Virus record (IMG/VR): IMGVR_UViG_3300020069_000003
Location: 13,481-77,480 of that record
Origin: a virus
Taxonomy: Duplodnaviria > Caudoviricetes
Length of the DNA: 64,000 nucleotides
Strand: one strand, 5' to 3'
The stretch's first letter is position 1. Each line of letters opens with the position of its first letter. The notes beneath the pieces are model-generated. The model was not told where the DNA came from. It saw only the letters and a list, made by a program, of their open reading frames with translations, and made no database searches. Below are positions 37,128 through 52,794 of this stretch, piece by piece. The position numbers and the translations under genes were made by a program.

Positions 37128-39098
37128 ATGACACCTACACTGACTTGGGGTCAGGCCGAGCAGGGTCTGGCCGAGCACTGGGGCAGCTTCTCCAGCCGCA
37201 CCCAGCAGCGCGACTACGCGCACGCCGTTACCGAGACCCTGCACCGCAACGCCAAGAACCGGGTGCGCATGGCCCAGGCGGGCGTCGGCTGCGGCAAGTC
37301 CCTGGGCTACCTGATCCCGGCGATCGCCACCGGCGGACGCGTGGTGGTCGCGGTGTCCACCAAGGCGCTGCAGGACCAGCTGTTCCTGAAGGACCTGCCT
37401 TTGCTGAAGCAGGCGCTGTTCCCGGACCTGACCTACGCAATACTGAAGGGCCGGTCCAACTACGTCTGCCTGCGGGCGGCCGACAAGTCGGGCCACCCGG
37501 CGGGGGTGGTGCAGGGCTCGGCGGGCGAGCGCACCGACCTGGTAACCCCGGTTACCGACGAGCAGTGGCGCGAGATGACGGTAGACGCCGAAGGCTGCGT
37601 CGGCCGCAAGGCCTGCCCGTTCTCGGACAACTGCTACAGCGAGGCGGCGAAGCTGCGCGCGCTGTCGGCCCGGGTGCTGGTGGTCAACACCAGCCTGCTG
37701 ACCCAGGACCTGAAGCTGCGGGCGATGACCCGGGGCAAGGCCTCCCTGTTCGGCGATTACGACTGCCTGATCGTGGACGAGGCGCACGAGATGCCCGACA
37801 TCGTGGCCGGTGGCCTGTCCATCCAGGTCACGCTGCACCGGATCTTGGACGCCACCTCGAAGCTGGCCTACCACCTGGACGCGGCCGGTGCCCCGTCCCA
37901 GGTCGAGAAGGTCAACACCGTGGCCAGCCAGTACTTCAACCAGATCTCGGACTGGTTCCGGGGCCAGCGCGACGCCCGCACCGCCGATCTGGCCGAGGAC
38001 GACCGCCGGTCGGTCGGCCAGATCGTCGACGCCCTGCAGCCTCTGGTCGAGTGGGTCTCGCGTGCTCAGTGCAACTGCGAACCGATCATCGACCCGGAAA
38101 CCGGCGAGGAGGACCTGGTGTGCGAGTACAACCGCCGGATGTCCTCCCTCATGACCGACCTGTGCAAGTTCGCCGCTCCGGAGTCCGAGGACTCGCCCAC
38201 CGACGTGGTGTGGATGGAGACGGTCGGACGTCGCGGTGCGGTGGCGCTGAAGTCGTCCCCGGCCGAGGTCGGCGGCTGGCTGCGCGCGGTGCTGTGGGAG
38301 GGTTTCAACACCTCCCGGGGTGAGCGCGAGCTGCCGACGGTGCTGACCTCGGCGACGCTGGCGGTCGGCGGAGACTTCACCTACCTGGCCCGCAGGCTCG
38401 GTATCCCGGCCTACGACGACATCGACGTCGGCACCCCGTTCGACTACGGCAAGCAGGCGATGCTGTACCTGCCCCCGATGTCCGCCCCCAGCCCGAAGAA
38501 GGGACTGGAGTGGAAGCAGTGGGCGCAGGACCAGATGTACCAGCTGGTCGAGGCGTCCGGCGGTGACGCGCTGATGCTGTTCACCAGCGTCTCGGCGATG
38601 CGGGAGGCTCACGAGAGGGTGGGCCCGCGTCTGGAGCGGCTGGGGATCGCCAGCCGGATGCAGGGCGATGGCATGGACAACCGGGCGCTGGCCGGGTGGT
38701 TCGCCAGCAATCGCCGGAACGTCCTGTTCGCCACCCGGTCGTTCATGACCGGGGTGGACTTCCAGGGCGACACCTGCCGCCTGGTGGTGGTGGACAAGAT
38801 GCCGTTCCAGCCGCCGGAGGACCCGGTGTTCAAGACCCGGTGCAAGCTGGTGGAGCAGCGGTTCGGCGAGCGCTCCTCCTTCAGCCGGGTATCCATCCCC
38901 GACATGGGGATGGTTCTGCAGCAGGCGGGCGGGCGCCTGATTCGGTCGGTCCACGATCGGGGGGTGCTGGCGATCCTGGACCCCCGGATGCGGGCGGGAT
39001 GGGCGGCCCCGATCCGGCGCAGCCTGCCGAAGATGGCCGACGCCCAGACGATCGAGCAGGTCCGGCAGTTCTACCGCCAGCTGGCGCTGGTGGACTGA
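37128..39098 (+). CDS. dinG: DinG/YoaA-family Fe-S SF2 helicase
   Basis: AGVGCGKS, STKALQDQL, KGRSNYVC, CVGRKACPF..NCY, DEAHE, SATL, GVDFQG and QQAGGRLIRS. Confidence 0.95.
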   Translation: MTPTLTWGQAEQGLAEHWGSFSSRTQQRDYAHAVTETLHRNAKNRVRMAQAGVGCGKSLGYLIPAIATGGRVVVAVSTKALQDQLFLKDLPLLKQALFPDLTYAILKGRSNYVCLRAADKSGHPAGVVQGSAGERTDLVTPVTDEQWREMTVDAEGCVGRKACPFSDNCYSEAAKLRALSARVLVVNTSLLTQDLKLRAMTRGKASLFGDYDCLIVDEAHEMPDIVAGGLSIQVTLHRILDATSKLAYHLDAAGAPSQVEKVNTVASQYFNQISDWFRGQRDARTADLAEDDRRSVGQIVDALQPLVEWVSRAQCNCEPIIDPETGEEDLVCEYNRRMSSLMTDLCKFAAPESEDSPTDVVWMETVGRRGAVALKSSPAEVGGWLRAVLWEGFNTSRGERELPTVLTSATLAVGGDFTYLARRLGIPAYDDIDVGTPFDYGKQAMLYLPPMSAPSPKKGLEWKQWAQDQMYQLVEASGGDALMLFTSVSAMREAHERVGPRLERLGIASRMQGDGMDNRALAGWFASNRRNVLFATRSFMTGVDFQGDTCRLVVVDKMPFQPPEDPVFKTRCKLVEQRFGERSSFSRVSIPDMGMVLQQAGGRLIRSVHDRGVLAILDPRMRAGWAAPIRRSLPKMADAQTIEQVRQFYRQLALVD

Positions 39099-41347: not shown

Positions 41348-42130
41348 ATGGAAGACAATCTGATCTACCACGACTGGGAGTTCCTGGAGGACGGGCGCAG
41401 CATCGTACCGATCAGCGTGGGGATGGTCACCGAGGCCGGTGACGAGTACTACGCGGTCAACGCCGACATGCCGTGGCTGCGAGTTTGCGGGCACCCGTGG
41501 CTGCGTAATCACGTCGTGCCCCACCTGCCGCTGGCGGGGGAGGTCGGGCCCGATCGGATGCCGGTCCTGGACCTGCTGCACCCGTCGGTCAAGACCGCCC
41601 GGCAGATCCGGCAGGAGGTGCGGGGGTTCATCCTGTCCCACCCCCGGCCGAAGCTGTGGGGCTGGTACTCGGACTTCGACCAGGTGGCGCTGGCGTGGCT
41701 GTACGGACCGATGATCAGCCTGCCGCAGGGTATGCCGATGCGTACCTCCGACGTCCAGCAGGAGATCGACCGGCTGCAGGTGCCGGACAAGGAGCTGCCG
41801 CAGCAGGACCCGGACGGACTGCACGATGCCCTGTCCGACGTCCGGCACATCCGCGTCCTGCACCGGTTCCTGCGGCAGCTGGAGCAGCAGCGTGTCCAGC
41901 AGCGCCAGAACCTGTCGTACCAGATGGCTCGCGCAGCCGAGGCCCGTATGGACCTGCAGACCACCCGGATGCTGGCGCTGCTGGTCTCGCGCCTGGACAA
42001 CCGGGTGGAGATCTCCGACGCCGACCTGGCCGCCGTGGACTCCGACCGGCTGGTCACCTACCGGCAGTCCCAGCTGGACCAGGCGTCCCCGCTCGTGATC
42101 GAATACCGTCCCAAGGAGGTGCAGACGTGA
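41348..42130 (+). CDS. 3'-5' exoribonuclease (Rv2179c/RNase AS, DEDDh-like)
   Basis: IYHDWEFLEDG, ISVGMV, EYYAVN, LWGWYSDFD.V, PMRTSDVQQE and HDALSD. Confidence 0.9.
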   Translation: MEDNLIYHDWEFLEDGRSIVPISVGMVTEAGDEYYAVNADMPWLRVCGHPWLRNHVVPHLPLAGEVGPDRMPVLDLLHPSVKTARQIRQEVRGFILSHPRPKLWGWYSDFDQVALAWLYGPMISLPQGMPMRTSDVQQEIDRLQVPDKELPQQDPDGLHDALSDVRHIRVLHRFLRQLEQQRVQQRQNLSYQMARAAEARMDLQTTRMLALLVSRLDNRVEISDADLAAVDSDRLVTYRQSQLDQASPLVIEYRPKEVQT

Positions 42131-43302: not shown

Positions 43303-44298
43303 ATGGCAGCTATGCTGGGGCCGGATATCAGCTCGTACCAGAACGGGCTGGACCTGTCCAGACTGAGGTACGCCTCGTTCGTGATCGCCAAGACCACCGA
43401 GGGCACCTACTACACCGACAAGAACTACCAGGGCTGGCGCCAGCAGGCCGCCGCGCTGCGCAAGCAGTTCCTGTGGTACCACTTCCTGTCGGGCGAGGGC
43501 TCGGCGATCCAGGCGGAGCACACCAAGGCGAACGTCGGTGACCTGTCGCTGCCCGGCATGCTCGACGCCGAGCCCGCAGGGTCGTACAGCCCGACCCTGG
43601 CCCAGATCATCGGATACATCGACGCGGCGCACTCGGCCGGACTGAATCTTCGGCTGTGCTACCTGCCGAAGTGGTACTGGGAGCAGATGGGCAGCCCGAA
43701 CCTGGGCGAGCTGCTCGCCCGAGGCGTCCATCTGGTGGCGTCCAGCTACCCCGGCGGCACCGGCGATCCCCGTACCCTGTACCCCGGCGACAGCTGGTCC
43801 GGGTTCGAGGCTTACGGCGGCGTCCCGGTCGAGATCGCCCAATACACGAACAAGGCGTCCGACGGCGGCCAGCCGCTGGACTACAACGCCTACCTAGGCA
43901 CACCCGAACAGTTCCAGCAGCTGCTGTACGGCAGCGGCGCCACACCCGCAGGAGGAACCGACATGTCCTACACCATCAGCGCCAACTGGCAGAACGACTA
44001 CCCGGACGCGGCGGCCGAGCTGCAGAAGCACGCCGCCCCGGGCACGGTGCTGGAGACCGACCAGGCGGCCGGTATCGCGGCGGTCCGGTCGGTGGTGATC
44101 GCCTACCGGGCCGGACAGCTGGAGGCGGGCCAGGCGAACCTGAACTCCAAGCTGGACCTGATCATCAGCACCCTGGCGAACCCGGCCGCGCTGGGCGCTG
44201 CGATCGCCAGCCACCTGCAGGCGGGGGGTGGTGCAGACGCGGCGGCCCTGACCGAGGCGATCGCCTCCCACCTGCGCGTCAACCTGAGCACCCAGTGA
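43303..44298 (+). CDS. GH25 lysozyme (endolysin)
   Basis: DISSYQ, KTTEGT.Y, YHFL, LDAE, QYT and LDYN. Confidence 0.92.
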   Translation: MAAMLGPDISSYQNGLDLSRLRYASFVIAKTTEGTYYTDKNYQGWRQQAAALRKQFLWYHFLSGEGSAIQAEHTKANVGDLSLPGMLDAEPAGSYSPTLAQIIGYIDAAHSAGLNLRLCYLPKWYWEQMGSPNLGELLARGVHLVASSYPGGTGDPRTLYPGDSWSGFEAYGGVPVEIAQYTNKASDGGQPLDYNAYLGTPEQFQQLLYGSGATPAGGTDMSYTISANWQNDYPDAAAELQKHAAPGTVLETDQAAGIAAVRSVVIAYRAGQLEAGQANLNSKLDLIISTLANPAALGAAIASHLQAGGGADAAALTEAIASHLRVNLSTQ

Positions 44299-45807: not shown

Positions 45808-46305
45808 TTGAACGCCCGCAAGGTACAGGTAGCGGCGGTGACCAGCTCGATGGTGACCGCCGCTACCTCCGCGTTTGCCTGGGCACTGACCCGGTGGGTC
45901 GACAGCCTGGCCCTGCGCTACACGGTGCCGCTGGTGGTGTTCGGCACGGTCTGGGTTCTGACGGTGTCGTTCGCCGCCGGTGTCGCCTGGACGGCGGCCG
46001 AGCAGTTCGGTGTGTGGGCGGCCAAGCCCAAGCCGCCGCGCCCCCCGGGCCCGACGCCCCCGCCGCCGCAGCCGGGCGAGACACCGCGTCCGGCGCCCGG
46101 CCCGATCCAGCCCAGACCGCCCCGCCCGCCCAGGCAGGAGCTGCTGGCCGAGACCACCCTGGTCGACATGGAACCAGTCACCGAGACCCGGGAGATACCG
46201 GCGTGTGTCGACCGGATGGAAGAGCCGGTCGGGTACGTCCCGGTCTGGCGTCCCCCTGCGTCCAGTACCGCCCGCGAGCTTGTGGAAGGGAAGGCCGTTA
46301 AATGA
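45808..46305 (+). CDS. Membrane protein with a Pro-rich tail
   Basis: Two TM segments, then PKPPRPPGPTPPPP; start approximate. Confidence 0.5.
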   Translation: MNARKVQVAAVTSSMVTAATSAFAWALTRWVDSLALRYTVPLVVFGTVWVLTVSFAAGVAWTAAEQFGVWAAKPKPPRPPGPTPPPPQPGETPRPAPGPIQPRPPRPPRQELLAETTLVDMEPVTETREIPACVDRMEEPVGYVPVWRPPASSTARELVEGKAVK

Positions 46306-48713
46306 TTGAACCATCCGGCACCCTCGTCGGCGACGTCCTGCTGCCGGAGCTGCCGCCCGGTACCTGGGTCGCCTACGACACCGAGACCAACGGGCTGCAC
46401 CCGGACGGCGACCCCGGCACCGACAGCGGCGACCCCGGCTCGCCCCCCGCGCGCGTGGCAACCGCCAGCATCGCGTACCGGGATCCGGGGGACCCCGGTC
46501 GGATATTGAAGTACGCCTGGGGGTTCGACCAGGGCCCGCACCCCAGCAAGGACGGGCGGATACGGCGCCCCCGGGAGGGGGGTGGTGTAGAGCCGCTGGA
46601 CGTCGAGAAGCTGCTGGCGAACCTCGCCAAAGCCGGATACAACAACGGCTGGCGGGACCAGATCGGCAAGAACGGCAAGCCGCTGAAGACCCGGCTGGCG
46701 GTGCCGTGGACGGTTGAGCAGTCGTACGAGGCGGTCGGGCTGGACTCGTGGCTGCGGCTGCTGGCGTGGCTGCAGCGCCGCGACCAGCTGGTGATGCACC
46801 ACCGAAAGTTCGACGAGTGGATGACCTGGGTCGGCCCCCGCAACTGGCGCATCCGCCACGAGTGGGTGCACAACCCGGCGCTGCGCCAGACCGTCCAGCA
46901 GCTGGGGGTGTACGACCCGGAGCTGATCGATCAGCTGATGGCGGATGACCCCGATCGGGACGTAGGAGGGTGGTTCGGTGCCGATCTGGATCTGACGGCC
47001 GACGGTCACGAACGACCCGTGCGGGGTATCTGGGACACCATGCTGGTGCAGGCGTTCTTCGACCCGGACCAGTCGGTCGCGCTGAAGAAGTCCGCCAAGC
47101 GGCTGTTCGGGGTGGACGCCGACGCCGACCAGAAGGCATTGCTGGCGGCGATGGGCAAGCAGGGTACCGGACTCACCAAGCGGTACGACCTGACCCCGTG
47201 GAAGATCATGGGGCCGTACGCCGCCACCGACCCCGAGCTTACCCTGCTGCTGGCGGAGAATCAGCTGCGCCGGATCTCCGAGGGCGACCACCCCGGGGAC
47301 TCCCGGTTCCCGCAGCACCCGCACCTGCGCAACCCCAACCTGGTGTGGGACCAGATCGACAAGGAGTTCGAGCTGTCCCGGGTCCTGCTGAAGATGGAGA
47401 AGCGGGGGGTGGGATACGACGTCCAGACGTCCAAGCTGGGGGCCCGGCGTCTGCAGGCCGAGATGGAGCGGGTGCGCCAGACCATCCCGTACGACCCGAC
47501 CAAGCTGGACGAGATCCGCAGGTTCTATTTCGCACCGAAGTCCGAGGGCGGGCTCGGGGTCATGCCGCTGAAGCTGTCGGAGAAGACCAACGTGCCCTCG
47601 GTCGACGAGGCCCAGATGCGGCTGCTGATGCAGTCGGGGCACCCGGGCGCGGCCGAGTACGACCAGTGGTCGCACTGCAAGTCCGCCCTGGGCAAGTGGT
47701 ACCGGGGATGGGCCGACCGCACTGGTACGGACGGGCGTCTGCGCACCAGCTTCAAGCAGTGCGTGATGGCGGAGGAGCGGGCCGGTGCGAAACCCGGCGG
47801 CACGATCTCCGGCCGCCTGGCCGTCGGCCGGGTCCAGCTGCAGGCGATACCGCACAACGGCCAGCTGCCGGAGGTGGTCCGGGACATCCCGGTGCGCGAC
47901 CTCATCCACGCCCGGCCGGGCCACGCCCTGTGGGAGATGGACCTGCCGCAGGGCGAGGTCCGGATAGCCACGGTGGTGGTGAACTGCCGGGCGATGTGGG
48001 ACGTGATCGACTCGGGCGAGGATCTGCACGGGGCCAACGCCAAGCGTATCTTCGGCGTCACCGAGGACGACCCCCGGTTCAAGGACCTGCGGGGCGTGGC
48101 CAAGCGCATCGTGTTCGGCACGCTGTACGGCGCGGGGGTCCGGACCCTGCGCAAGCAGATACTGGAGTTCACCGGGATCGACTACTCGGAGGACGAGACC
48201 CGGGAGGCGAAGCAGGCTTTCGAGCACACCTACCCGGAGTTCCCCCGAGTCGCCCGCCAGATCCAGCGCAAGGCCGACCGCACGCTGGGCGGCGCGGGGT
48301 ACGTGAACCTGGTCGACGGGCGCAAGCGCTGGTTCGGTCCGGACGAGTTCGGCCACAAGGCCTTCAACGCGGTGATCCAGGGCGGCCTGGCCCAGTCGGG
48401 CAAGACCTGGATGATCCAGGTCGAGCGCCAGCTGCCGGGCATCCAGGTGCTGGCGATCCACGACTCGATCGTGGTGGAGGTTCCGGACAACGAGGCTGGG
48501 GCGGCGCAGGCCGCGCAGGTCGCCGCGATCGGCAAGCAGGTGTACGAGCGCGACTACGGCACCCGGGGACGCACGATGTACTTCGACATCGTCCCCGAGC
48601 GCTGGGACGAGAAGGAGCCCCCGGCGCCGACAGGCCTGGCGGACAAGGTTCGCGCCCAGCTGGCCGAGCACCGTGCCAACTCGGTAGAGGGCTTTAGGCA
48701 GCTGACCTCATGA
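46302..48713 (+). CDS. polA: DNA polymerase I (family A) with a 3'-5' exonuclease domain; candidate DpoZ
   Basis: YDTETNG, YAATD, TISGRL, LQAIP, MDLPQGEVR, RGVAKRIVFGTLYG and IHDSI. Confidence 0.95.
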   Translation: MIEPSGTLVGDVLLPELPPGTWVAYDTETNGLHPDGDPGTDSGDPGSPPARVATASIAYRDPGDPGRILKYAWGFDQGPHPSKDGRIRRPREGGGVEPLDVEKLLANLAKAGYNNGWRDQIGKNGKPLKTRLAVPWTVEQSYEAVGLDSWLRLLAWLQRRDQLVMHHRKFDEWMTWVGPRNWRIRHEWVHNPALRQTVQQLGVYDPELIDQLMADDPDRDVGGWFGADLDLTADGHERPVRGIWDTMLVQAFFDPDQSVALKKSAKRLFGVDADADQKALLAAMGKQGTGLTKRYDLTPWKIMGPYAATDPELTLLLAENQLRRISEGDHPGDSRFPQHPHLRNPNLVWDQIDKEFELSRVLLKMEKRGVGYDVQTSKLGARRLQAEMERVRQTIPYDPTKLDEIRRFYFAPKSEGGLGVMPLKLSEKTNVPSVDEAQMRLLMQSGHPGAAEYDQWSHCKSALGKWYRGWADRTGTDGRLRTSFKQCVMAEERAGAKPGGTISGRLAVGRVQLQAIPHNGQLPEVVRDIPVRDLIHARPGHALWEMDLPQGEVRIATVVVNCRAMWDVIDSGEDLHGANAKRIFGVTEDDPRFKDLRGVAKRIVFGTLYGAGVRTLRKQILEFTGIDYSEDETREAKQAFEHTYPEFPRVARQIQRKADRTLGGAGYVNLVDGRKRWFGPDEFGHKAFNAVIQGGLAQSGKTWMIQVERQLPGIQVLAIHDSIVVEVPDNEAGAAQAAQVAAIGKQVYERDYGTRGRTMYFDIVPERWDEKEPPAPTGLADKVRAQLAEHRANSVEGFRQLTS

Positions 48714-48985
48714 GCGCCAGGGAGCGGATGGTCGAGGTGGTTCGCCAGGCGCTGGCGCGGGAGGCCGTGTGTGAACAGACTGTGGAGTCGCTGACCGCCC
48801 ACGTGGCCGAGGCCGTGGTCGGCGCGCTGGTGGCGCACGGACCGGCTGTCGACGGCGGCAGCTACCGGGCCGGGTGGCTCATCGGTTACGGCCGGGTGCA
48901 CGACGTCACCGAAACCAGTATGGAGGACGGACTGTACCACGTCTGGACCCGGGACCTCGACCCGGACAGCCCGGACTACGACTAG
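48710..48985 (+). CDS. Hypothetical protein
   Basis: ATGA coupling. Confidence 0.5.
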   Translation: MSARERMVEVVRQALAREAVCEQTVESLTAHVAEAVVGALVAHGPAVDGGSYRAGWLIGYGRVHDVTETSMEDGLYHVWTRDLDPDSPDYD

Positions 48986-48999
48986 AGAGACGAGGGACA

Positions 49000-49314
49000 A
49001 TGAAACCGCTGATCAACGAGGAAGACCCGGGGTACTACAGCGCCCAGACCGAGGCGGTCGAGGCGGTGGGGGAGTCGATCCGACGGGACGGTGACCTCAG
49101 GTCCGACCACACCGTCTCCGCCTACGCCTGGGCGGCGATGGGGGCGCTGTGCGAGACCGACCCGGATCTGCCGGAGGGCGGCTGGCTGTTCGTCCGAGGC
49201 CGGGTGTACCGGGTGACCGAGGCCGAGCAGGTCGACGACGGCGAGAACCGGGACGGCGTCCTGTGGGCCGTCGAGACCCGACCGGAGCGGGACGAGGAGG
49301 AGGACGAGCAGTGA
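49000..49314 (+). CDS. Hypothetical protein
   Basis: GAGGG RBS; MKPLINEED. Confidence 0.5.
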   Translation: MKPLINEEDPGYYSAQTEAVEAVGESIRRDGDLRSDHTVSAYAWAAMGALCETDPDLPEGGWLFVRGRVYRVTEAEQVDDGENRDGVLWAVETRPERDEEEDEQ

Positions 49315-49541
49315 CCACCGTCAAGACCGTGATCGAGGTGTCGGACGGCGCCGAGATGCACGTCGGTGTGAACGCCGAGGGACGGATGTACGTCCGGATC
49401 GGCGGTGAGCACGAGCAGCAGGTCGAGATCGTGTGCTCCAGCTACGACACCATCCGGATGGCGTCCGAGATCATGGACCGGACCGCCGGATACGTCTCGG
49501 AGCTGGAGCGCCAGCTGGCCCGGTGGGTGAACACCGGGTGA
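49311..49541 (+). CDS. Hypothetical protein
   Basis: GTGA coupling; MTTVKTVIEV. Confidence 0.5.
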   Translation: MTTVKTVIEVSDGAEMHVGVNAEGRMYVRIGGEHEQQVEIVCSSYDTIRMASEIMDRTAGYVSELERQLARWVNTG

Positions 49542-49601
49542 CCCGGTTTACCTCGTCAGTCTGACTGTACACCGGTGGGGCGGGGGTGGTGTACTGGCGC
49601 G

Positions 49602-50111
49602 GTGCAGACCATCGATTGGGGTACCGACCTGTTCTGGGCGATCGACCCTGGTGAGACCAAATGCGGGGTGGCGATCTTCCAGCACGGCCGGTGTGTCCAG
49701 GCACTCGCCAGCACCCCCGACGAGTGCCTGGACAAGCTGTGGGAGCACCTCGGGTACGACCTTGCGGGTCCTACCCGGCCACGGGGGGTCGTGCTGGAGA
49801 CGTTCGCGCTGCGTGCCGACCTGGCTGCACAGCAGACAGGTAGCGAGATGGGTACCTCCCAGATGATCGGGGCGGTCCGGTGGATGTGCCGCCACCGGGA
49901 GGCACCGCTGGTGATGCAGACCCCCCGCCAGGCCCACAGCATCGACGAGAACCCCGGCACCGAGCCGTTCCGCAGCTGGCCGCTGCGCCGGTGGGCCAGC
50001 TACGGCCAGGGCAGGGACGCCAAGATGGCCGAGCGTCACGGGCTGTTCCGGGTGTCGACCTCGTGGGAGACCCGGGAGCAGCGAGAGGCGTGGCGTGTAT
50101 CAATGTCCTGA
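49602..50111 (+). CDS. RuvC-like Holliday junction resolvase
   Basis: WAIDPGETKCGVA, VVLETF and SQMIGAV. Confidence 0.8.
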   Translation: MQTIDWGTDLFWAIDPGETKCGVAIFQHGRCVQALASTPDECLDKLWEHLGYDLAGPTRPRGVVLETFALRADLAAQQTGSEMGTSQMIGAVRWMCRHREAPLVMQTPRQAHSIDENPGTEPFRSWPLRRWASYGQGRDAKMAERHGLFRVSTSWETREQREAWRVSMS

Positions 50112-50200
50112 TAGGACTTGACTACGGGGCAAGCTGTAGGGAAAAATACTGGTACAGCCGCCTGCACGTGCAGCGGCGCGGGCATGAGAGGCAGGTAGGT

Positions 50201-51403
50201 ATGGCCAGTAACCTGTACGTGGTGGTTGGCGGACAGTACGGGTCCGAGGGCAAGGGAGCCGTTGCCGGACGCATCTGCGCGGACATGCAGGTCCGGGGGC
50301 AGGAGGTGGTGAACGTCCGGGTCGGCGGACCCAACGCCGGGCACACGGTGATCGGGAGGTGTCCGGCCGACTGCGGCGACACCCACGAAGTGGGCAAGCA
50401 CCCGTGGCGGCTGCGCCAGGTGCCGGTGGCGGCGGTCACCGCAGCCGACAGCACGCTGGTGATCGCGGCCGGGTCGGAGGTCGACCCGTATGTGCTGGCC
50501 GACGAGATCGGACAGCTGAACGCGGCCGGATACGACGTGGACGCCCGGCTGATCGTCGACCGGTCGGCCACGGTGCTGACTGGCGCCCACGTCACGGCCG
50601 AGCAGGTCAACGGACTGAACGCCCGGATCGGGTCCACCGCCAAAGGAATCGGCGCCGCGCGCTCCGACCGTATCTGGCGCCAGGCGCAGACCTGGGACGA
50701 GTGGGCGTCGAAGGGTGCGACACCGGCGGGCATGCTGCTGTCGGACGCGAAGGTACTGCACCAGCTGACGCGGCGCGACACCTCCCGCTGGATGTCGGTC
50801 CTGCTGCACGACTCGGCACGGGCGTCGGTGGTGATCGAAGGCACCCAAGGCTACGGGCTGGGGCTGCACACCGGCAACTACCCCAAGGTCACCTCCGGGG
50901 ACTGCCGCGCGATCGACTTCCTGGCGCAGGCGGGTATCTCCCCGTGGCAGCAGGACTGCGGCGGCTGGCCGCTGAATCTGAAGGTGGTGGTTGCGATCCG
51001 GCCCCACCCGATCCGAGTCGCAGGCGACTCGGGGTGGCTGAAGGGAGAGACCACCTGGGCAGATTTGGGCCTCCCCGACGAGCACACCACCGTCACCCGG
51101 AAGGTGCGCAGGGTCGGCGCCTGGGACCCGGAGCTGGTCCAGCAGGCGGTCCGGGCGAACGGGGGCCCGAGGCAGGGGGTGGTGTGGATGGCGCTGACCA
51201 TGGCGGACAGCGTCGAGCCCCGGCTGGCCGGTATCGACCAGGCCGTGCGCAACTGGGCCGGGGCCAGAGACGGGACAGAAGGGGAGCTGACGTTCGACAC
51301 CGTCAGCAGGTACCTGTCGACCCTCGGCACCGGTGCCCAGCACCTCGGGTACGTCGGCACCGGACCCGACACCGCGATCGTCAACGAGAGGATGTACGAC
51401 TGA
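50201..51403 (+). CDS. purZ: PurZ0-type 2-amino-deoxyadenylosuccinate synthetase (PurA homolog)
   Basis: GQYGSEGKG (Ser in place of the PurA Asp13), GGPNAGHT, IGSTAKGIG, EGTQG..L, YPKVTSGDC, EHTTVTRKVRRV, TMAD and GTGP. Confidence 0.8.
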   Translation: MASNLYVVVGGQYGSEGKGAVAGRICADMQVRGQEVVNVRVGGPNAGHTVIGRCPADCGDTHEVGKHPWRLRQVPVAAVTAADSTLVIAAGSEVDPYVLADEIGQLNAAGYDVDARLIVDRSATVLTGAHVTAEQVNGLNARIGSTAKGIGAARSDRIWRQAQTWDEWASKGATPAGMLLSDAKVLHQLTRRDTSRWMSVLLHDSARASVVIEGTQGYGLGLHTGNYPKVTSGDCRAIDFLAQAGISPWQQDCGGWPLNLKVVVAIRPHPIRVAGDSGWLKGETTWADLGLPDEHTTVTRKVRRVGAWDPELVQQAVRANGGPRQGVVWMALTMADSVEPRLAGIDQAVRNWAGARDGTEGELTFDTVSRYLSTLGTGAQHLGYVGTGPDTAIVNERMYD

Positions 51404-51903
51404 TGGCACAGCAGTTGAGCCCGCAAGAGCGGGACGTGGTCCGCGAGCAGAACGAGGCGGAGCTGGTGGCCGACGCGGCCGACCCGCAGCTGACCCAGGT
51501 GTTCGAGGTGGTGGATCCGGCCATGCCCAACCTGGCCCACTCGCTGGCGCAGCTGGGGCCCCGCACCACCACCCACGGCACCGGCAACGTCGCCCCGCCC
51601 AGCTTCGGCGAGTGGGTCGGCAAGTGGGCGGCCGAGCACATCCCGCAGGCGGAGGCCAAGGCCGTGCAGTACGGCAGCAACTCGCTGGCGAAGAAGGGAC
51701 ACCGGTTCGCGGCGGCGGTGGGCCAGCGGGTCAACCAGGGCCAGGCGCTGGAGCTGGGCGTGGCCCAGTACACCGCCGAGAAGGCCGACCGGATCGAGGA
51801 CGCGATCCTGCGGGGCCAGCTGCCGACCGAGGACACCTGGGTCGACGTCGCGATCTACGCCCTCATGGCCCAGTACATCCGGCAGTATGGGCGCTGGGCC
51901 TGA
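51403..51903 (+). CDS. Putative all-alpha NTP pyrophosphohydrolase (DUF1599/MazG-like)
   Basis: KAVQYG...EKADRI...DTWVDVAIYA; coupled to purZ. Confidence 0.6.
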   Translation: MAQQLSPQERDVVREQNEAELVADAADPQLTQVFEVVDPAMPNLAHSLAQLGPRTTTHGTGNVAPPSFGEWVGKWAAEHIPQAEAKAVQYGSNSLAKKGHRFAAAVGQRVNQGQALELGVAQYTAEKADRIEDAILRGQLPTEDTWVDVAIYALMAQYIRQYGRWA

Positions 51904-51931
51904 CCTGCGGCGGTCGGCCCGTCGGGACCGG

Positions 51932-52252
51932 GTGAACGGCGTCACCGCCGCTCCCCCGGCCCGTCACCTGCGGATCGCACCGACAGCCCAGGACCAGCTG
52001 TCCGCGTCGCTGAACTGGATAGACGTAGCCGCGCGCGGACGCCTCGGCCGCGAGGTGATCGAGTCGGCGATGTCCCACCAGCGGGAGGTCGATTGCCCGC
52101 CGGGTATCTTGATCGCCGCTGCTGTCCAGTACCTGATCTCCGACTCGGACCGCGAGCCGGATTTCCTGAACCGGTTCTGGACGATAGCCAACCTGGTGTC
52201 GGCCCGGGAGCGGGCCCGATACCTCAACATGGAAGAGGATGCACTGTCTTGA
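51932..52252 (+). CDS. Hypothetical protein
   Basis: In frame with the track ORF; lies between two nucleotide-metabolism genes. Confidence 0.5.
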   Translation: MNGVTAAPPARHLRIAPTAQDQLSASLNWIDVAARGRLGREVIESAMSHQREVDCPPGILIAAAVQYLISDSDREPDFLNRFWTIANLVSARERARYLNMEEDALS

Positions 52253-52794
52253 GCAGCACCGAGGAAACGTCAGGCGCTTTCGGCGAGGCCCTGCGCAAGA
52301 TGGCCGACGTCGTGCGCGAGGCCATGAGCAACAAGCCGCTGGTGTTCGAGCCGGTCGTGCCGCAGGGGCGGGGGGTGGTGCAGACCCCGACCGGGCCGCA
52401 GCACCTGCTGCCCACCCGGGGATACGCCGACGACGCCGGACTGGATCTGTACGTCGTTCGGGACTGCGCCATCGGACCGCACGAGTTCGTGGACGTCGCG
52501 GCCGGGGTGAAGATCGACATCCCGGACAGGCTGTGGGGTCTGATCATCGGTCGTTCGTCGACCCTGCGCAAGAAAGGACTGCTGGTCAACCCCGGGGTCA
52601 TCGACGCCGGTTGGACCGGGGAGCTGTTCGCGGGCGTGCAGAACCTGACCGACAAGACGGTCGAGGTCAGCGCCGGTGACCGGCTGGCCCAGCTGATCCT
52701 GCTGCCCGCGCCGGTGGTCGGCTACGACCCCCAGTGGGGCAGAGTGCGCGACAAGTCGCGCGGCGAGCGCGGGTTCGGGTCGACCGGAAGCTGA
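52249..52794 (+). CDS. dut: Trimeric dUTPase-family protein
   Basis: AGLDL, GRSS, GVIDAGWTGEL, GDRLAQL and RGERGFGSTG. Confidence 0.92.
   Translation: MSSTEETSGAFGEALRKMADVVREAMSNKPLVFEPVVPQGRGVVQTPTGPQHLLPTRGYADDAGLDLYVVRDCAIGPHEFVDVAAGVKIDIPDRLWGLIIGRSSTLRKKGLLVNPGVIDAGWTGELFAGVQNLTDKTVEVSAGDRLAQLILLPAPVVGYDPQWGRVRDKSRGERGFGSTGS

Follow-up and report, generated by a model that had tools for sequence, protein, structure and literature searches.

Does the stretch 46302-52794 of an uncultured soil phage genome encode the means to build DNA in which adenine is replaced by 2-aminoadenine (Z)? A sequence-only reading had seen in it a PurA homologue of the PurZ0 type, a family A DNA polymerase (PolA) and nucleotide hydrolases, and had proposed a probable Z genome. 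The genome (IMG/VR record IMGVR_UViG_3300020069_000003) is 77,480 bp long, has direct terminal repeats and is rated complete. The window, to which all positions refer, is a 64,000-nucleotide stretch of it (bases 13481-77480 of the record). The gene identities, clades and gene order described below support the proposal, and we consider it likely that 46302-52794 forms a module for nucleotide supply and replication in a Z-genome phage of the PurZ0 type, whose enzymes would have the corresponding specificities and whose virion DNA would contain Z.

The four motifs on which the proposal had been built were all found in one plus-strand gene (50201-51403). They are GSEGKG (residues 14-19; window 50240-50257), VTSGDC (residues 230-235; window 50888-50905), TTVTRKVRRV (residues 296-305; window 51086-51115) and TMAD, which is part of LTMAD (residues 332-336; window 51194-51208). 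In this gene, Pfam detected no more than an adenylosuccinate synthetase (Adenylsucc_synt, 3e-28). The protein passed the curated NCBIfam model for PurZ (NF038379; 310.7 bits against a cut-off of 300, E 9e-93) and failed all the PurA equivalog models, the best of which gave 162.5 bits against a cut-off of 368. Its best solved relative was PDB 7VF6 (E 4.6e-73), the PurZ0 of Gordonia phage Archimedes (PMC12884076), followed by archaeal PurA (3e-27), phiVC8 PurZ (6FM1; 1e-20) and S-2L PurZ (7ODX; 2e-14). Among deposited phages, actinophage PurZ0 proteins were 41-53% identical to it (E 1e-63 to 1e-95), 53% being the highest identity reached by any cultured relative. After a clean gap came the PurZ proteins of Vibrio, Acinetobacter and S-2L phages, at 26-31% identity (E around 1e-20).

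The phylogeny with PurA, PurZ and PurZ0 that the sequence-only reading had suggested was built by maximum likelihood (ML) from 31 rows, with one bacterial PurA as the sole outgroup. It placed the protein in a PurZ0 clade (support 99/99) with 7VF6/Archimedes, Galactica, Litotes, PermaG and Parvaparticeps, while PurZ formed a separate clade (98/93). Within the PurZ0 clade the protein joins a subclade made up of uncultured sequences only. Together these results uphold the assignment of the PurA homologue to the PurZ0 type, an enzyme that would act on dGMP and use GTP.

The residues behind this assignment could be placed by alignment. A Ser takes the position of Asp13, the catalytic base of E. coli PurA (GSEGKG against GDEGKG of Salmonella PurA). 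The P-loop reads GSE[A/G]KG in PurZ0, GSTGKG in PurZ and GDEGKG in PurA. The alignment of TMAD with the NTP-specificity motif also held, since LTMAD falls on LTKLD of Salmonella PurA, VTMLD of Pyrococcus PurA and LSMAD of 7VF6. This position follows the pattern (T/S)MxD in PurZ0, TKLD in PurA and NFxN or NFxQ in PurZ (LNFAN, LNFCN or LNFAQ); the protein retains the guanine-specificity Asp of PurA. Asp333 of E. coli PurA reads the guanine of GTP, and PurZ0 reportedly uses GTP (a 2023 study by Tong et al.). The Ser is present in 100% of 147 phage PurZ-group sequences (PMC12884076). A move of the later PurZ to ATP/dATP has been described (preprint 10.1101/2025.10.22.683976). One sentence of PMC12884076, in its section on dutZ/dmtZ enrichment, gives the opposite order of ATP and GTP preferences, contrary to what the preprint and the conserved Asp imply, and is probably a textual slip.

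The PurZ0 enzyme also carries an insertion at residues 54-67 (window 50360-50401) of the form C54-P-x-x-C58 ... H62 ... H67-P-W. It is common to Hiyaavirus PurZ0 and the uncultured subclade, and absent from the PurZ0 of Archimedes (7VF6), Arthrobacter and Microbacterium phages. C54, P55 and H67 do not vary among 28 sequences, and the insertion may be a small metal-binding knuckle.

The polymerase gene at the upstream end of the stretch was correctly recognised as family A: its product matched Pfam DNA_pol_A (3e-32) and DNA_pol_A_exo1, with Exo I (YDTETNGL) and motifs A, B and C intact. Its best NCBIfam model was phage_DpoZ_2, which scored 2.6 times as high as the best of the generic PolA models (98 bits or less); the DpoZ of PurZ0 phages is named DpoZ-1 in the literature (PMC12884076). 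About 135 of the 147 phage records matching the polymerase at E<1e-20 came from genera carrying PurZ0 (105 Arthrobacter, 18 Microbacterium, 6 Gordonia, 1 Curtobacterium and 5 Hiyaa-type), and the numbers from the PurZ0 search were identical. In an ML tree, the polymerase fell into a clade (97/98) with 21 PurZ0-linked PolAs, away from phiVC8-type DpoZ and T7. PurZ0 and PolA also share the same nearest relatives, L017, L023, L018 and L019 (labels from L016 to L023 and L099 denote loci; those from P0036 to P0247 denote proteins from large protein collections). The polymerase is, by its sequence relationships, of the PurZ0-linked kind. In Streptomyces phage Intolerant, to whose PolA we return below, the gene immediately upstream of the PolA gene bears the annotation 'nucleotide pyrophosphohydrolase'.

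At the downstream end, the Dut-like protein matched Pfam dUTPase (2e-27) and retains all five Dut motifs (DDAGLDL, GRSSTLRKKG, GVIDAGWTGEL, DRLAQLIL and RGERGFGSTG), with a Trp in motif III where Wayne, Ghobes and Hiyaa have Tyr. It missed the NCBIfam cut-offs for canonical dut (90.9 against 102.55). By BLAST rank, which is the sole basis of this grouping, its top phage matches were all from PurZ0 phages (Wayne, Microbacterium phages and others; 48-54% identity, E 1e-31 to 1e-37), and canonical dUTPases followed only after a drop, the first of them at E 3e-15. The proteins of Ghobes and Wayne hydrolyse not only dUTP but also dATP and dGTP, with a reported dATP/dGTP diphosphatase activity, and were named DutZ; dutZ was present in all 98 PurZ0 genomes, and Ghobes DutZ alone converted dATP fully to dAMP and had its highest apparent kcat on dATP (PMC12884076). 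We identify the Dut-like gene as a DutZ-type homologue, which would hydrolyse dATP and dGTP as its homologues do. Of the 'nucleotide hydrolases' that had been named in the plural, this gene is a recognisable hydrolase, but the 166-residue product of the gene following PurZ0 matches no hydrolase family by sequence.

A second activity that accompanies DutZ in other phages is missing here. In L018 (8924-9880) and L023 (8889-9815), whose PurZ0 proteins are about 60% identical to that of the phage, a DmtZ (NDT-like) domain is fused to DutZ. The phage, L016 and L017 have only the linker and the Dut domain, with the linker kept as the N-terminus in the alignment (window 52249-52420). PF05014 had no match for DmtZ in the genome, and a custom NDT hidden Markov model (HMM) was negative here and in L016 and L017. 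The same HMM found DmtZ in 64 of 81 PurZ0 loci and left 17 without it; these 81 comprise this locus and the best 80 of at least 97 IMG/VR PurZ0 loci. DmtZ is likewise missing from 13 of 98 PurZ0 genomes (PMC12884076). DmtZ was lost in this lineage, in what looks like a recent and clean removal of the domain.

The gene directly after PurZ0 is the one module element for which we found no description, and PMC12884076, which deals with the enzymes of PurZ0 phages, does not mention its domain. Roughly residues 63-166 of the protein form a C-terminal domain of about 100 residues, here called the X domain. The protein had no match in Pfam (E up to 5), PHROGs, NCBIfam or a PDB sequence and profile search. 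The X-domain family comprises 779 clusters at 50% identity and includes Archimedes gp51, a Ghobes homologue, PermaG gp55 and the C-terminus of Galactica gp66. Its near-invariant positions (W71, K86, Y90, G91, E117, K127, R130, D144, D148, Y152 and W165) map to single faces of three helices. The AlphaFold2 model of the domain alone has four helices (predicted local distance difference test score, pLDDT, 97.6) and found no PDB match above noise. With the model of the whole protein (pLDDT 82), Foldseek against PDB and a wide VIA search returned helical hairpins only. The PDB matches spanning all four helices were MazG-like only and lay within the noise band for helical proteins: 2a3q (Z 5.9, root-mean-square deviation (rmsd) 3.3, 76 residues), 2yxh (Z 5.8, rmsd 2.5, 69 residues) and DR2231 (Foldseek TM 0.42, E around 3). 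The ESM Atlas gave only unnamed viral clusters, one of them with DUF1599 on 14% of its members. In BFVD, the nearest structures outside the X-domain family were DUF6378 proteins, to which the papers mentioning DUF6378 assign no function.

A divergent DUF5664, MazZ or MazG protein was considered and rejected at the sequence level. PF18909 and PF03819 had no match, and hhalign comparisons of the X profile with the DUF5664 profile, S-2L MazZ, Vibrio H1_0026 and the SH-Ab DUF5664-DUF550 protein gave probabilities of at most 0.4%. An early hhalign hint (YGSNS..KG against YEPHNWRKG) disappeared with better profiles.

All 81 loci of the HMM census have the order PurZ0, X domain or DUF5664, optional DmtZ, and DutZ. 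The position between PurZ0 and DutZ is taken by the X domain in 65 and by DUF5664 in 16 (mostly Arthrobacter phage records); the two never occur together and are never both missing. In a reverse test seeded with the YG[ST]NSL subfamily of the X domain, PurZ0 was directly upstream in 14 of 14 loci. In rare cases PurZ0 and the X domain are also fused into single chains of 485-582 residues (P0036, P0038, P0055, P0074, P0108, P0111 and P0247). Six of these were among the 120 best PurZ0 homologues, with P0247 in addition; the fusions were seen only in the large protein collections, and in none of the 81 loci. The X-domain protein is probably a dedicated, nucleotide-handling component of the PurZ0 pathway, either a nucleotide hydrolase or a partner of PurZ0. 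It is quite possible, if still short of probable, that the X domain is a new family that replaces DUF5664-1/MazZ, acting either as a pyrophosphohydrolase on dATP and dGTP or as a partner that handles nucleotides for PurZ0.

The genes of the module are listed in the table. The limits of the region coincide with exact gene ends, 46302 being the first base of the polymerase ATG and 52794 the base on which the Dut-like gene's stop codon ends. With the Pfam and NCBIfam scores given above, none of these identifications is due to chance. The TTG start of the latter overlaps the preceding stop (TTGA), and an alternative ATG at 52300 would give 164 residues. The three small open reading frames (ORFs) behind the polymerase gene had no Pfam or PHROG match. 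The Cas4-like protein shares 31% identity with gp60 of Streptomyces phage Galactica, a Cas4 family exonuclease according to the depositors' annotation, and matches phrog_5202, a phrog without assigned function, at 4e-12; no match was found in Pfam or NCBIfam, and a Cas4-like gene lies upstream of PurZ0 in many related loci. The small ORF between the X-domain and Dut-like genes has homologues at the equivalent position in L016, L017, L018, L019/L020 and L023. W-x5-RGRL forms part of the core, and the ORF matches no family significantly (weak Pfam match to Lsr2_DNA-bd, E 0.035, residues 41-59).

Table. Genes of the region 46302-52794, as called from the ORF listing and a frame analysis of GC content at third codon positions (GC3)
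Feature	Position in the window	Strand	Remarks
PolA, family A DNA polymerase with 3'-5' exonuclease domain	46302..48713	+	803 aa; DpoZ-like
Three small ORFs	48710-48985; 48997-49314; ~49383-49541	+	high in-frame GC3; start codons uncertain
Cas4-family-exonuclease-like protein	49575..50111	+	178 aa from the longest start
PurZ0-type succino-2-amino-deoxyadenylate synthase	50201..51403	+	400 aa; ATG start
X-domain protein	51403..51903	+	166 aa; start overlaps PurZ0 stop (TGATG)
Conserved small ORF	51887..52252	+	121 aa from ATG; conserved core ~85 aa; own-frame GC3 ~0.86
DutZ-type dUTPase homologue without DmtZ domain	52249..52794	+	181 aa from TTG 52249

Several genes of known Z pathways were searched for in the complete 77,480-bp genome. 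HD-domain DatZ (PF01966) had no match at E<=1, in a search whose control was positive in 14 of 14 reference genomes; its reported absence from the window was therefore correct and extends to the whole genome. DUF5664 (PF18909) and MazG (PF03819) had no match in the whole genome either, and PurB, ThyX and guanylate kinase were searched for in it and not found, nor did tblastn with Galactica PurB find a match. The lack of DatZ is no problem for a Z genome, since in PurZ0 phages its place is taken by DutZ, which DmtZ and DUF5664-1 may or may not accompany (PMC12884076).

In the pathway that we propose, PurZ0 would join dGMP and aspartate, with GTP as the phosphate donor, to give succino-2-amino-deoxyadenylate, from which host PurB, host (d)GMP/AMP kinase and host nucleoside diphosphate kinase (NDK) would produce the Z deoxynucleoside triphosphate (dZTP); the phage encodes none of these three. 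The DutZ-type homologue would convert dATP to dAMP, removing the competitor, and dGTP to dGMP, feeding PurZ0. The X-domain protein, perhaps helping with the dATP/dGTP conversion, fills the slot of the MazZ/DUF5664 pyrophosphohydrolases and would probably do a related job, the hydrolysis or binding of nucleotides for PurZ0. The PurZ0-linked polymerase would then place dZTP opposite T and copy the genome as Z:T DNA, and such DNA may allow the phage to evade restriction. The phage is uncultured, and these activities are predicted from characterised homologues at 43-54% identity.

Some observations weigh against this pathway. The phage_DpoZ_2 score of the polymerase, 257.3 bits, is under the cut-off of 350, and the PolA of Streptomyces phage Intolerant (L099:572-2916), for which no PurZ0 hit was obtained, nests within the PurZ0-linked clade. 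Membership of the clade is therefore no proof of a preference for dZTP, and the phylogeny does not settle which nucleotide the polymerase prefers. The predicted role of GTP as donor draws on one conserved Asp, the homology to 7VF6 and the 2023 study by Tong et al. With DmtZ, DatZ and DUF5664 absent, the removal of dATP would be left to DutZ alone, apart from any contribution of the X-domain protein. This last point leads to the alternative of a leaky substitution, in which dZTP is made but dATP is incompletely excluded, so that the virion DNA is a mixture of A and Z. The absence of HD, NDT and PF18909 matches from the complete genome and the sub-threshold polymerase would fit such a mixture, as would the DmtZ-DutZ fusion kept by L018 and L023, from which it follows that a dAMP-destroying activity was lost in this lineage. 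Against it stand the full conversion of dATP by Ghobes DutZ alone and the persistence in nature of modules without DmtZ (the 17 loci and 13 genomes mentioned above), and the X-domain protein may add hydrolase activity. We regard a leaky substitution as unlikely.

It is less likely still that the genes serve an ordinary auxiliary metabolism, with the PurA homologue making adenylosuccinate from IMP for AMP supply beside a normal dUTPase, a normal PolA and adenine in the DNA. The PurA, Dut and PolA families are indeed large and have housekeeping members, but the Ser at the Asp13 position, the PurA cut-offs missed by more than half (162 against 368 bits at best), the PurZ cut-off passed and the place in the PurZ0 clade all speak for a different enzyme, the Dut protein scores below the canonical cut-offs and groups with the Dut of PurZ0 phages, and the conserved gene order is that of known Z phages. 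Nor do we give much credence to a decaying module whose genes are relics no longer used, the least probable of these explanations. The loss of the DmtZ domain does show change in the lineage, but all frames are open with a strong GC3 bias, PurZ0, Dut and PolA retain their catalytic motifs unbroken, overlaps of start with stop codons resemble those of coupled operons, and the genes are kept in a relative whose PurZ0 is 95% identical and in relatives at 60-66%. The PurZ0-type Z-genome module thus stays our preferred explanation of the stretch.

The surroundings of the module were also inspected. The phage DNA has a GC content of about 67%, and when the region was compared by megablast with 50,697 phage records, no deposited phage with similar DNA was found. 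Upstream lie an XPD/DinG-type helicase gene (37128-39098; Helicase_C_2, 2e-31) and a weak, below-cut-off match to an Rv2179c-like 3'-5' exoribonuclease (41348-42130; E 1e-4), and a GH25 muramidase domain (43303-44298; 2e-9) sits within the replication region. The genome is, as far as sequence comparison can tell, a mosaic, and the host of this soil phage is probably actinobacterial.

The module is carried by about 100 genomes of cultured phages and by at least 97 loci in IMG/VR. With this phage, the known PurZ0 Z-genome phages gain an uncultured soil lineage of 77 kb. Its module, without DatZ, DmtZ, DUF5664 and a phage PurB, may help to show which genes a minimal PurZ0 set needs, a question of importance to the engineering of Z-DNA synthesis. 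If the X domain is a pathway enzyme or partner, the published scheme of PurZ0, DutZ, DmtZ and DUF5664-1 misses a component present in about four fifths of PurZ0 loci; the PurZ0-X fusions would be useful guides for modelling a complex of the two.

Among known Z phages, cyanophage S-2L, the phiVC8-type vibriophages and Acinetobacter phage SH-Ab 15497 resemble the phage in having a PurA-derived synthase with the Ser, a means of dATP removal and a supply of dGMP. They differ in their PurZ proteins (26-31% identical, with GSTGKG and NFxN instead of GSEGKG and TMAD), in the use of an HD-domain DatZ and in a polymerase from another clade. PurZ phages also have a slot for a small nucleotide pyrophosphohydrolase directly after purZ, filled by MazZ in S-2L. 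The gene directly after purZ encodes an 86-residue protein in a phiVC8-type phage and a 385-residue protein annotated as hypothetical in SH-Ab 15497. A DUF5664-DUF550 fusion of SH-Ab 15497, which may be the product of this gene, is described as its dGTP/dATP pyrophosphohydrolase (PMC12884076).

Gordonia phages Archimedes and Ghobes and Arthrobacter phage Wayne are closer. Their gene order, PolA, PurZ0, a small all-helical protein and DutZ, is that of the phage, and their proteins are 43-47% (PurZ0) and 48-54% (Dut) identical to its own. Archimedes gp51 and the Ghobes homologue carry the X domain, as in the phage, whereas Wayne-type phages have DUF5664-1 instead. The DutZ, DmtZ and DUF5664-1 proteins of these systems have been characterised (PMC12884076). 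These phages differ from the present one in their genome size (about 43-45 kb against 77 kb) and in the presence of DmtZ, either separate or fused.

The Hiyaavirus phages (Streptomyces phages Galactica, Hiyaa, Keanu and Spocter) share the replication module, including PolA (36% identity), PurZ0 (53%, with the equivalent Cys/His-containing insertion), the Dut domain (54%), a primase/polymerase (48%), the X domain (C-terminus of gp66, 39%), the Cas4-like nuclease, another Cas4-like exonuclease and a RecA-like protein. Their structural (head and tail) genes show no detectable similarity to those of the phage. Galactica differs further in having a DmtZ-DutZ fusion, a phage PurB and an X-domain protein of 315 residues with an extra N-terminal part. 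The phage and Galactica share replication and nucleotide genes only; the PurZ0 module moves along with the replication module among phages that are not otherwise related. PurZ0 phages, DutZ and DpoZ have already been published, and the phage is a new, divergent and uncultured member of this group.

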